Source: a virus (lineage: Duplodnaviria; Heunggongvirae; Uroviricota; Caudoviricetes). Taken from it: 39,465 nt of DNA. The notes below the pieces were generated by a model that searched no databases, was not told where the DNA came from, and saw nothing but the letters and a program-made list of their open reading frames with translations. The stretch's first letter is position 1. Each line of letters begins with the position of its first letter. Positions 16,957-18,424 of the stretch are shown piece after piece. The stretch lies in IMG/VR virus record IMGVR_UViG_2526164598_000015; one strand, written 5' to 3'. The position numbers and the translations under genes were made by a program.

Positions 16957-17349
16957 ATGTCTGAACCCTTATCCGGTTCCGGCACGGCTGCGGCGCTGGG
17001 TGGCGCGACGGTATTCGGGCTGTTTACCGGGATGGATTTCGGGATTGTGTTTGGCGCGTTCGCCGGGGCGTTATTTGTGGCAACGATGCCGCAGTCACTT
17101 TCAGTCTGGCGCGTGGTGGCGCATTTTCTGGTGTCGTTTATTGTCGGCGTGCTGGGAGCGCGTGTGCTGTCAGCCTGGATTGCATCAAAAACAGGGTATG
17201 ACGGTACATCAGCAGATGCGCTTTGCGCGGTGCTGGTCTCGGTGGTGTCGGTGAAGATTCTCTCGTTCATCCACCAGCAGGATATTGCATCGCTGGTGTC
17301 CGGTGTGTTCTCCCGCCTGCGGGGTGGAGGAGGCGGCAATGTTAAGTAA
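16957..17349 (+). CDS. Putative holin (multi-helix membrane protein), first gene of lysis cassette
   Basis: ATG 16957 with AGGAGGAAG RBS; glycine-rich hydrophobic helices; position upstream of endolysin. Confidence 0.5.
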   Translation: MSEPLSGSGTAAALGGATVFGLFTGMDFGIVFGAFAGALFVATMPQSLSVWRVVAHFLVSFIVGVLGARVLSAWIASKTGYDGTSADALCAVLVSVVSVKILSFIHQQDIASLVSGVFSRLRGGGGGNVK

Positions 17350-17614
17350 CCTTCCCGGATTGCTGAATGTGGCGTTATGCACGGTTATCGTGCTGACGCT
17401 CTTTTTTTATCGTCGCCGTGATTCCAGACATAAACCGCTGGTGTCATGGCTGGCCTGGCTGCTGATGCTGCTGTATGCCTTTGCGCCCCTCAGCTATCTG
17501 TGTGGTCGCCCGTTAGCAACGGGCTGGCTGGAAGTGTTTTTTAACCTGCTGTTCTGCGTGCTGGTGATACACGCACGCGGGAACGTCACAAAAATCTTTC
17601 CATTGTTGAGGTGA
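17339..17614 (+). CDS. Putative holin/antiholin-like membrane protein (92 aa)
   Basis: ATG 17339 with GGAGGAGG RBS; three hydrophobic segments; overlaps flanking genes. Confidence 0.5.
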   Translation: MLSNLPGLLNVALCTVIVLTLFFYRRRDSRHKPLVSWLAWLLMLLYAFAPLSYLCGRPLATGWLEVFFNLLFCVLVIHARGNVTKIFPLLR

Positions 17615-17994
17615 ATATGCCGGGTAAATTCAGATTCAGCCGTCGCAGTGAAAAAAATCTGGAGGGTGTCAAACCACAGCTGGTTGCTGTAGTTCGCCGT
17701 GCGCTGGAGCTGACGGAGGTTGATTTCGGTATTACGGAAGGCCTGCGCAGTAAGTATCGCCAGAAACAGCTGGTTGCGGAAGGGAAAAGCCAGACCATGA
17801 ACAGCCGCCACCTGACCGGTGATGCGGTGGATGTTGTGGCCTACATCGGCAGCCAGGTGTCATGGGAGTGGCCTCTGTACGAGAAAATCGCACAGGCATT
17901 TAAGCAGGCTGCCGCAGAGCTGGGGATCGCTATCGAATGGGGCGGGGACTGGAAAACGCTGAAAGACGGACCTCACTTTCAGCTGAAGCGATAA
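17611..17994 (+). CDS. Endolysin, peptidase M15 family (L-alanyl-D-glutamate / D-Ala-D-Ala peptidase type)
   Basis: 127 aa; zinc-ligand-type motifs SRHLTGDAVD and DGPHFQL; no N-terminal signal-anchor segment. Confidence 0.8.
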   Translation: MNMPGKFRFSRRSEKNLEGVKPQLVAVVRRALELTEVDFGITEGLRSKYRQKQLVAEGKSQTMNSRHLTGDAVDVVAYIGSQVSWEWPLYEKIAQAFKQAAAELGIAIEWGGDWKTLKDGPHFQLKR

Positions 17995-17998
17995 GTAA

Positions 17999-18034
17999 AA
18001 CAAAACCCCGGCTGGGGGAACAGTCCGGGGTTTT
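17999..18034. terminator. Hairpin with flanking A-run and T-run (possible bidirectional terminator) after endolysin
   Basis: AAAACCCCGG ... CCGGGGTTTT 10-bp stem with 13-nt loop, TTTTT downstream. Confidence 0.5.
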
Positions 18035-18126
18035 TAGTTTTCACGTCAAAGGGGAAATTGTGATTAGTGAGTAGGGAGAAAATCCTCGTGGGAAAGTATA
18101 AAAGATTCTTTTTGAGGTTGTCCATT

Positions 18127-18243
18127 ATGAAAGGTATTGAAATGGAAACTCCCGCGAGCCTTGATTTGACAAGGGCTGCGGCCTTTGCAATTCGCCTTGT
18201 GGCGGTCGCTGTTCTGATTTGGGCTGTGCGTTGGTGGTGATAT
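18127..18243 (+). CDS. Very small membrane protein (38 aa), hypothetical
   Basis: MKGIEMETPASLDLTRAAAFAIRLVAVAVLIWAVRWW; single TM; stop abuts start of lipoprotein ORF. Confidence 0.3.
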
Positions 18244-18424
18244 GGCGCGAAAACACTGGACACACAGAATGCCGCGAACGGCGGTGAAACGGGCACTGGT
18301 AGCGATACTGGTGCCTTTTTTATTGGTGGGGTGCGTCAGCCTGGATAAGGCGCGCCAGCTTTTCGATACCGCGTCTCAGGTCTGTGAAATTGTCGACGGT
18401 GTTCGGCAGTGTCTGCAGAACTGA
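18242..18424 (+). CDS. Small lipoprotein (lipobox LLVGC); possible outer-membrane lysis accessory (o-spanin-like) or exclusion protein
   Basis: Signal peptide MPRTAVKRALVAILVPFLLVGC then Cys; mature part about 36 aa with three Cys; not proline-rich like classical Rz1. Confidence 0.4.
   Translation: MARKHWTHRMPRTAVKRALVAILVPFLLVGCVSLDKARQLFDTASQVCEIVDGVRQCLQN

Follow-up and report, generated by a model that had tools for sequence, protein, structure and literature searches.

A small endolysin-linked lipoprotein as a candidate outer membrane disruptor without a dedicated inner membrane spanin in phiP27-like prophages of Escherichia coli

The window analyzed here is the whole 39,465-nucleotide stretch of IMG/VR virus record IMGVR_UViG_2526164598_000015, a lambdoid Escherichia coli prophage, and the region of interest is its late lysis cassette, which is of the phiP27-like type. 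The last gene of this cassette encodes a 60-residue prolipoprotein (Table 1). On balance, the lipoprotein is considered probably to serve in outer membrane disruption and to work without a dedicated inner membrane spanin subunit (i-spanin). By gene order, it sits exactly at the position held by Rz/Rz1 in other lambdoid phages and is the conserved fourth gene of such cassettes. The lipoprotein has already been catalogued as an outer membrane spanin subunit (o-spanin); the new elements are the lack of an i-spanin, the alternation with Rz/Rz1, and the finding that the published partner is very probably spurious.

A first-pass annotation, made from the sequence of the window alone, had placed two membrane proteins upstream of an M15 peptidase endolysin and suggested profile searches for the holins. 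These searches bore the assignment out, as both membrane proteins were matched to holin families (PF16931 and PF05449) and the third protein to PF13539. The three genes overlap or abut, with the second holin gene starting 11 nucleotides before the end of the first, and form a canonical holin-endolysin cassette. The first holin is labelled "putative holin" in an identical E. coli prophage. No N-terminal transmembrane domain, signal, or signal-arrest-release sequence was detected in the endolysin, and its ratio of nonsynonymous to synonymous polymorphism (pN/pS) was 0.10 across 64 alleles.

The cassette had also been described as lacking a canonical spanin, and this was found to hold for the entire window, where neither an Rz/Rz1-type pair nor a unimolecular spanin was detected by a lipobox scan, a type II membrane protein scan, or tblastn. 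The tblastn searches of the window with Rz and Rz1 sequences were negative, the type II scan of the window gave no i-spanin candidate, and the lipobox scan returned only two convincing candidates, the 60-residue lipoprotein and an unrelated one of 112 residues. An open reading frame (ORF) at 19456-19692 with a hydrophobic N terminus was considered as a partner and rejected, as it travels with the DUF1441 terminase module and occurs also in L002, a locus of E. coli 1EC213 that carries Rz/Rz1.

The prolipoprotein consists of a basic n-region (MARKHWTHRMPRTAVKR), a 13-residue h-region (ALVAILVPFLLVG), the lipobox LVG/C, and a mature part, CVSLDKARQLFDTASQVCEIVDGVRQCLQN, of 30 residues with no Pro and three Cys including the lipidated one. 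This agrees with the first-pass description of a 60-residue lipoprotein rich in Cys rather than Pro. The Gly-Cys pair of the lipobox is invariant in alignments of intact members, so that the lipoprotein signal of an o-spanin is present. At position +2, the family members seen carry V, A, T, S, G, or E and never D; because there is no Lol-avoidance Asp at this position, the lipoprotein is predicted to sort to the outer membrane. Two Cys at mature positions 18 and 27/28 are kept even in members at about 55% identity, and the mature length is nearly always 30 residues across the family. An AlphaFold2 model of the monomer consisted of one continuous helix, with a predicted local distance difference test score (pLDDT) of 76. 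The protein gave no Pfam match at E<=1, no NCBIfam match above noise, and no PADLOC match. Weak matches to phrog_1275, annotated as an Rz-like spanin, were obtained (E=0.05 and 0.008), mainly over the signal peptide, and were not counted as homology.

The Prokaryotic Genome Annotation Pipeline (PGAP) starts the gene at an internal Met codon at 18269, giving a product of 51 residues. That Met is T, V, I, or Q in relatives, and Met1 is nearly invariant. The 60-residue form was therefore deduced to be the product, because the upstream Met is conserved and the internal one is not. Many database entries carry an 84-residue form that starts inside the endolysin gene.

The pN/pS of the lipoprotein gene was 0.26 over 63 unique alleles and 0.22-0.29 when the n-region, h-region, and mature part were taken separately, which indicates a real gene under purifying selection rather than a chance ORF. 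The signal peptide, with the consensus RKHWTHR.PR..AK.ALVAILVPFLLVGC, is better conserved than the mature part across subfamilies. Part of this conservation may reflect homogenization at the DNA level by recombination, because the synonymous divergence (pS) is lower in the h-region (0.12 versus 0.26). The homologues in databases form 152 clusters at 90% identity, mostly from E. coli and in part from Salmonella, Citrobacter, and Cronobacter; a Lelliottia/Citrobacter subfamily also exists. When 1.84 billion representative proteins were searched with a hidden Markov model (HMM), only 24 matches were obtained, all of them small enterobacterial relatives or fragments, and no connection to a known o-spanin family emerged from this search. 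The family is accordingly small and, as far as these matches indicate, confined to enteric prophages. A scan of GTDB species representatives yielded only four true lipoprotein loci.

The major data bearing on function were the contexts of about 170 lipoprotein loci taken from IMG/VR, GTDB species representatives, complete E. coli genomes, and metagenomes. At every locus with enough upstream sequence, an endolysin gene lies just 5' of the lipoprotein gene, and the lipoprotein was never found away from an endolysin. Four types of cassette were distinguished. The first, from E. coli and Citrobacter, has PF16931 and PF05449 holins and an M15 endolysin, as in the window. In the second (Salmonella and Citrobacter) the same two holins precede an endolysin of the GH108 type (phrog_315), with or without an Ant gene. 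The third, from Lelliottia, combines a phrog_126 holin with a GH108-type endolysin, and the fourth, seen in metagenomes, a PF05106 holin with an M15 endolysin. The minimal cassettes have no membrane ORF between the lipoprotein and the gene before it; the lipoprotein gene either overlaps its upstream neighbor or starts 1 to about 50 nucleotides past the stop codon of that gene, as exemplified by L092 (20-nucleotide overlap), L089 (4-nucleotide overlap), and L175 (start at +1 from the stop). The minimal cassettes, of only three or four genes, likewise contain no i-spanin candidate.

Alternation with Rz/Rz1 was evident from the 85 cassettes with two holins and an M15 endolysin, 82 of which carry the lipoprotein without Rz/Rz1. 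Two others carry an Ant gene and a canonical Rz with embedded Rz1 and have no lipoprotein, and in one the lipoprotein gene is deleted. A homology-independent detector of spanin pairs recovered the Rz/Rz1 controls in L002, L078, and L080 but overlooked the P2-type LysB/LysC of L088, so that overlapped architectures are not covered exhaustively. Within that scope, none of the 126 unique contexts of an intact lipoprotein contained a credible pair. The one pair flagged by the detector, in L129, was an unconvincing overlap of 88- and 61-residue ORFs next to a structural gene and was rejected. No cognate i-spanin, whether embedded, overlapping, or adjacent, was thus found in the window or in these 126 contexts.

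The only locus with both the lipoprotein and Rz/Rz1 is a Stx prophage of the O104:H4 type (L087), in which a class II holin, a lysozyme, a small transmembrane ORF, Rz/Rz1, and an Ais-like phosphatase on the opposite strand are followed by the lipoprotein. This copy (3440-3760 of L087) is a pseudogene with three in-frame stop codons, and the upstream GGTGATATG junction is retained. The dead copy, which carries no annotation, was found in phage GER2 as well as in 43 complete genomes. Taken together, these contexts indicate that an intact lipoprotein and Rz/Rz1 are mutually exclusive and that the lipoprotein has decayed where Rz/Rz1 made it redundant. Its exclusive linkage to the endolysin and its mutual exclusion with Rz/Rz1 make the small lipoprotein the best candidate for the spanin slot, in partial agreement with the first-pass annotation, which had named a spanin pair as one of two possibilities.

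The cassette is common. Among complete E. coli genomes, the lipoprotein and its endolysin correspond closely in number, as 310 records hold the phiP27-type M15 gene and 319 the lipoprotein at a threshold of 80% identity or more; a more distant M15 gene (about 76% identity) belongs to P2-like prophages with LysB-type genes of their own. About 6% of complete E. coli genomes carry the cassette, and prophages encoding Stx2e, Stx2k, and LT-II are among those that contain it.

A partner for the lipoprotein has been published in the case of phage phiP27. Kongari et al. (2018) listed phiP27 with a "separated" two-component spanin whose subunits both form singleton families; at 62 residues in total, its periplasmic length was the shortest in their survey, in which accepted spanins ranged from 62 to 300 (PMC6139136). 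The published o-spanin (20706-20861 of the phiP27 record) was identified as the orthologue of the present lipoprotein. The published i-spanin (20348-20542 of that record; L001 5377-5571, + strand) is a TTG-initiated ORF of 64 residues that lies in a phiP27-specific insert and has no PHROG match. It runs antisense to an ORF of 90 residues (L001 5361-5633, - strand) that is matched along its entire length by phrog_36812 (E=5e-20). Other loci encode protein homologues of this 90-residue ORF at 45% identity but do not conserve the frame of the supposed i-spanin. The i-spanin ORF itself was found in only 4 of about 167 lipoprotein loci, all phiP27-like copies, and is absent from the window. From these data the published pairing is very probably an artefact, and the lipoprotein is therefore left without a partner. 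The L32 gene of the RefSeq phiP27 record (20630-20785) is annotated in the wrong frame relative to the conserved lipoprotein.

A sequence of events can be proposed for the role favored here, that of a disruptor of the outer membrane without an i-spanin. The prolipoprotein would be made from the late transcript by Q-dependent read-through of the terminator-like hairpin that follows the endolysin gene. Export by Sec would be followed by lipidation and cleavage at Cys31 and then by sorting to the outer membrane, where the 30-residue helix would accumulate with its two conserved Cys probably oxidized, either within or between molecules. Once the holins had released the endolysin and the murein had been destroyed, the lipopeptide would breach the outer membrane with no inner membrane spanin subunit. 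Three modes of action can be envisaged. The lipid-anchored amphipathic helix might perturb the bilayer directly once the murein is gone; it might combine membrane perturbation with activation of the phospholipase OmpLA, as colicin lysis proteins do; or the mature form might find a partner in its own precursor, left uncleaved in the inner membrane, a single gene then supplying both halves of a "self-spanin". The last idea was suggested because the signal peptide is more conserved than the mature part. The more specific proposal that the lipopeptide is a stand-alone disruptor, acting without bridging the periplasm and representing a further class of phage lysis protein, is put forward tentatively, as plausible rather than probable.

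Several known proteins offer partial precedents. The disruptin gp28 of phage phiKT is a single small helical protein, proposed or shown to substitute for spanins, that is cationic and antimicrobial peptide-like (bioRxiv 10.1101/515445). The lipoprotein is likewise a single small protein, predicted to be helical, in a cassette without spanins. Unlike proteins of the disruptin type, taken here as small, highly cationic amphipathic peptides with no export signal, it carries a lipoprotein signal, would be routed by Sec and Lol, and ranges in charge from -4 to +2, and it does not qualify as a disruptin. The colicin lysis proteins are outer membrane lipoproteins of 28 residues when mature that activate phospholipase A and are lethal if overexpressed (PMC2896534). 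These and the bacteriocin release proteins, which permeabilize the envelope, resemble the lipoprotein in having a Lol-routed (predicted in the present case) mature lipopeptide of about 28 to 30 residues, and in the lipoprotein the signal peptide is conserved. It differs from the colicin lysis proteins (PF02402, Lysis_col) in that there is no sequence similarity, no Pfam family matching at E<=1, and in being predicted helical with two Cys, phage-borne, and coupled to a holin and an endolysin. The unimolecular spanin gp11 of T1 is comparable in that a single gene with an outer membrane lipoprotein signal takes the place of Rz/Rz1 in the cassettes. In contrast to gp11, the lipoprotein has no C-terminal inner membrane transmembrane domain, is only 60 residues in total, and ends in a polar C terminus (...VDGVRQCLQN).

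The resemblance to two-component spanins is likewise limited. As with lambda Rz1 and T4 PseT.2, a small lipoprotein, here predicted to reach the outer membrane, is encoded at the distal end of a holin-endolysin cassette. In PseT.2, two Cys near the C terminus are essential and the C-terminal part is predicted to form a helix (PMC6139136), and the present lipoprotein also has a conserved periplasmic Cys near its C terminus. Unlike the systems Rz/Rz1 of lambda and PseT.3/PseT.2 of T4, no i-spanin is encoded in the cassette or elsewhere in the prophage. The mature lipoprotein is predicted to be helical and is free of Pro, unlike lambda Rz1 with 10 Pro in 40 residues. Its total periplasmic length is also far shorter than that of the verified spanins, the 62 residues given for phiP27 including the very probably spurious i-spanin, and a mature part of 30 residues with no partner domain cannot bridge the two membranes.

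A number of observations weigh against the proposed role and are set out here together. A periplasmic domain of 30 residues is too short for the periplasm, and the canonical membrane fusion model is inapplicable as it stands. The helix is only moderately amphipathic (hydrophobic moment 0.2-0.35, shuffle p of about 0.02-0.5), and the net charge is -1 in the window and -4 to +2 across the family, unlike that of the cationic disruptin. In the window a strong terminator-like hairpin lies between the lipoprotein and endolysin genes, so that expression hinges on the inferred read-through by Q. The count supporting mutual exclusion is based on many closely related prophages, and the pseudogene copies probably represent a single evolutionary event. 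Spanins are dispensable under some laboratory conditions, and these phages could simply have no outer membrane step. In the literature searched there was no experimental work on phiP27-type lysis genes or on any member of the lipoprotein family.

Of the alternative explanations, the one that survives best is that the lipoprotein gene is a moron, or lysogenic conversion gene, serving in exclusion or in modification of the cell surface, that rides at the end of the lysis operon of phages with no dedicated gene for outer membrane disruption. The small lipoproteins that prophages encode close to their lysis or tail genes are often of this type, as exemplified by Bor of lambda, Cor of phi80 and N15, and Llp of T5, and the protein described here shares with them its small size, its predicted outer membrane location, and its position. 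Bor, Cor, and Llp are unrelated to it in sequence, however, and their genes have expression signals of their own; compared with these proteins as they are generally described, the lipoprotein differs in being translationally juxtaposed to late lysis genes and in alternating with Rz/Rz1. The moron explanation gains from the terminator-like hairpin 5' of the gene in the window, from the lack of any functional domain match in Pfam, NCBIfam, or PADLOC, and from the finding that about 13% of phages of Gram-negative hosts have no recognizable spanin (PMC6139136). It was considered unlikely on the following grounds. A scan of the + strand revealed no sigma-70-like promoter 5' of the lipoprotein gene, and in the minimal cassettes the gene abuts or overlaps the late gene upstream. 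Its guanine-plus-cytosine (GC) content (0.557) matches that of the lysis genes (0.553 for the endolysin gene), unlike that of the adjacent insert, and it never strays from the endolysin. Furthermore, Rz/Rz1 replaces it in otherwise identical cassettes and it is a pseudogene where Rz/Rz1 is present, whereas an exclusion gene would not be expected to turn dispensable upon the gain of a spanin. The same data, together with the absence of a PADLOC match, speak against the suggestion in the first-pass annotation of an unrelated exclusion lipoprotein.

It is also conceivable, if improbable, that the lipoprotein is the outer membrane half of a spanning complex whose inner half is a host envelope protein, a holin, or its own uncleaved precursor, the last joined to the mature form by way of the helix and the Cys residues. 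Stable and functional signal peptides are known from the colicin lysis proteins, and the unusual conservation of the n- and h-regions (each within the pN/pS range of 0.22-0.29) suggests that the precursor may have a function beyond export. The lipobox, the predicted sorting to the outer membrane, and the C-terminal periplasmic Cys, as in T4 PseT.2, are in addition hallmarks of o-spanins (PMC6139136). Among holins, those of the different cassette types vary (PF16931/PF05449, phrog_126, or PF05106), and therefore no phage-encoded partner is conserved. Two domains of 30 residues would still fall far below the width of the periplasm, and the low pS of the h-region suggests that its conservation is perhaps partly at the DNA level.

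The remaining candidate for a partner is the small membrane ORF directly upstream of the lipoprotein gene. The region between the endolysin and lipoprotein genes (17995-18241) is an insert with a GC content of 0.47, against 0.55 in the flanking genes. Its 5' end is the hairpin terminator that the first-pass annotation had noticed after the endolysin gene and that was recovered here by a terminator scan, followed by a T-run. In the minimal cassettes, which have no insert, the lipoprotein gene lies 15-50 nucleotides past the endolysin stop codon. The single-transmembrane ORF previously reported as 38 residues was confirmed in the insert as 37 residues plus a stop codon, and the same ORF is called by PGAP. 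A stretch 5' of the annotated ATG, KYKRFFLRL, is conserved in paralogues, which suggests that the product is probably of 50 residues and initiated at a GTG codon at 18088 (18088-18240). The ORF has no match in Pfam, NCBIfam, or PADLOC, and its pN/pS of 0.5-0.9 is uninformative since the set mixes paralogues. A basic N terminus predicts, by the positive-inside rule, an N-in topology with only the three residues RWW in the periplasm. About half of the lipoprotein cassettes, among them all the minimal ones and three of the four cassette types, lack the ORF and insert. Conversely, the same ORF with the same ...RWW-TGA-T-ATG junction stands directly 5' of canonical Rz/Rz1 in L002 and L087, where the lipoprotein is absent or represented by a dead copy only. 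It was concluded that the small ORF is an independent, optional insert and neither an i-spanin nor the partner of the lipoprotein.

The proposal of the first-pass annotation that this ORF (of 37 or 50 residues) and the lipoprotein form a minimal two-component spanin is thus very unlikely, even though the genes are adjacent, with the lipoprotein ATG 1 nucleotide past the stop codon of the ORF (TGATATG), and even though the published phiP27 call likewise pairs the lipoprotein with a tiny membrane ORF, which is a different and unrelated one. An analogy, though no more than that, is offered by Lcc6, a small membrane protein of Shewanella phage LambdaSo that acts at the holin step.

The small ORF belongs to a family of tiny tail-anchored peptides (phrog_4493, phrog_1115, and phrog_3246) whose genes many lambdoid prophages carry as inserts between their endolysin gene and the gene in the spanin slot. 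Besides the ORF in the window (18088-18240), examples are found at 2658-3068 of L002 and 3246-3568 of L004, and some prophages have two or three tandem paralogues. The members always terminate at the shared ...RWW-TGA-T-ATG junction, which resembles a recombination boundary.

Table 1. Features of the lysis region and other features of the window discussed in the text
Feature	Position	Strand	Description
AT-rich ORF of the early region	10115-10414	-	99 residues, two transmembrane domains; phrog_8552 E=1e-39
Three tRNA genes	16223-16472		anticodons CAT, TCG, TCT
TerB-like ORF	16438-16719		overlaps third tRNA gene
DUF3927 / TciB-like membrane protein	16716-16868		50 residues
Holin-family membrane protein 1	16957-17349	+	130 residues, about 4 hydrophobic segments; PF16931 Phage_holin_8 E=3e-23; phrog_198 holin E=3e-42
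Holin-family membrane protein 2	17339-17614	+	91 residues, 3 transmembrane domains; PF05449 Phage_holin_3_7 E=5e-21; phrog_217 holin E=7e-38
Cytoplasmic M15 endolysin	17617-17994	+	125 residues; PF13539 Peptidase_M15_4 E=7.5e-13; phrog_465 endolysin E=4e-75
GC-rich hairpin and T-run, intrinsic terminator-like	17997-18041	+	terminator scan; RNA fold -23 kcal/mol
Small tail-anchored membrane ORF	18127-18240	+	37 residues from ATG 18127 (PGAP); phrog_4493 E=9e-24
Prolipoprotein	18242-18424	+	60 residues; phrog_7528 (unknown function) E=1.5e-35; last gene of lysis cassette, spanin slot
Soluble protein	18599-18991	+	130 residues; phrog_1935 (unknown function) E=4e-69; no transmembrane domain or signal sequence
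Tail assembly gene I	33791-34432		
Second lipoprotein	34505-34843	+	112 residues, lipobox LTG/C; phrog_914 (unknown function) E=7e-33; no Pfam or PADLOC match
J-like central tail fibre ORF	34910-37711	+	stops after 933 residues

The window extends from the integrase-side early region to the tail fibre genes. Its segment 16700-18700 is 92% identical to the Stx2e phage phiP27, and over 17990-18560 the window shows 100% identity with a prophage of E. coli 203740. The latter genome is colinear with the window only over about 14.6-22 kb, and its PGAP annotation was used for the lysis region only. Upstream of the lysis genes, the colinear part encodes an antitermination protein (Q), a DNA methyltransferase, and three tRNA genes. 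The slot filled in the window by the tRNA, TerB-like, and DUF3927 genes (16223-16868) is the slot of stx (stx2e) in phiP27. On the 3' side, the lysis genes are followed by a gene of unknown function and then by terminase and portal genes. The 130-residue phrog_1935 gene lies 3' of the lipoprotein gene in many cassettes, although not in all. About 90% DNA identity to this E. coli lysis cassette was also observed for the phage record PP818812, "Actinobacillus phage vB_Apl-pPE4", which is surprising for a phage of a Pasteurellaceae host.

Outside the lysis region, the 112-residue lipoprotein gene sits between tail assembly gene I and the start of J and may be a Cor-like exclusion gene or moron. 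The J-like ORF is shorter than lambda J, and a frameshift or truncation is possible. The AT-rich ORF of the early region may also be a moron.

About 13 to 15% of phages of Gram-negative hosts have no recognizable spanin, and for the way in which they breach the outer membrane the literature searched holds only one experimentally tested alternative, the phiKT disruptin. With regard to that literature, the phiP27 system, as the "shortest known two-component spanin" with its 62 residues in the periplasm, very probably owes this status to a spurious i-spanin ORF. The cassette described here is common in the most tractable host, and its lipoprotein is a readily testable candidate for a further class of outer membrane disruptor. 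If the lipopeptide does act alone, it would constitute a genetically encoded outer membrane-lytic module of 30 residues, which would be of interest for engineered lysis, for protein release strains, and for antibacterial design.

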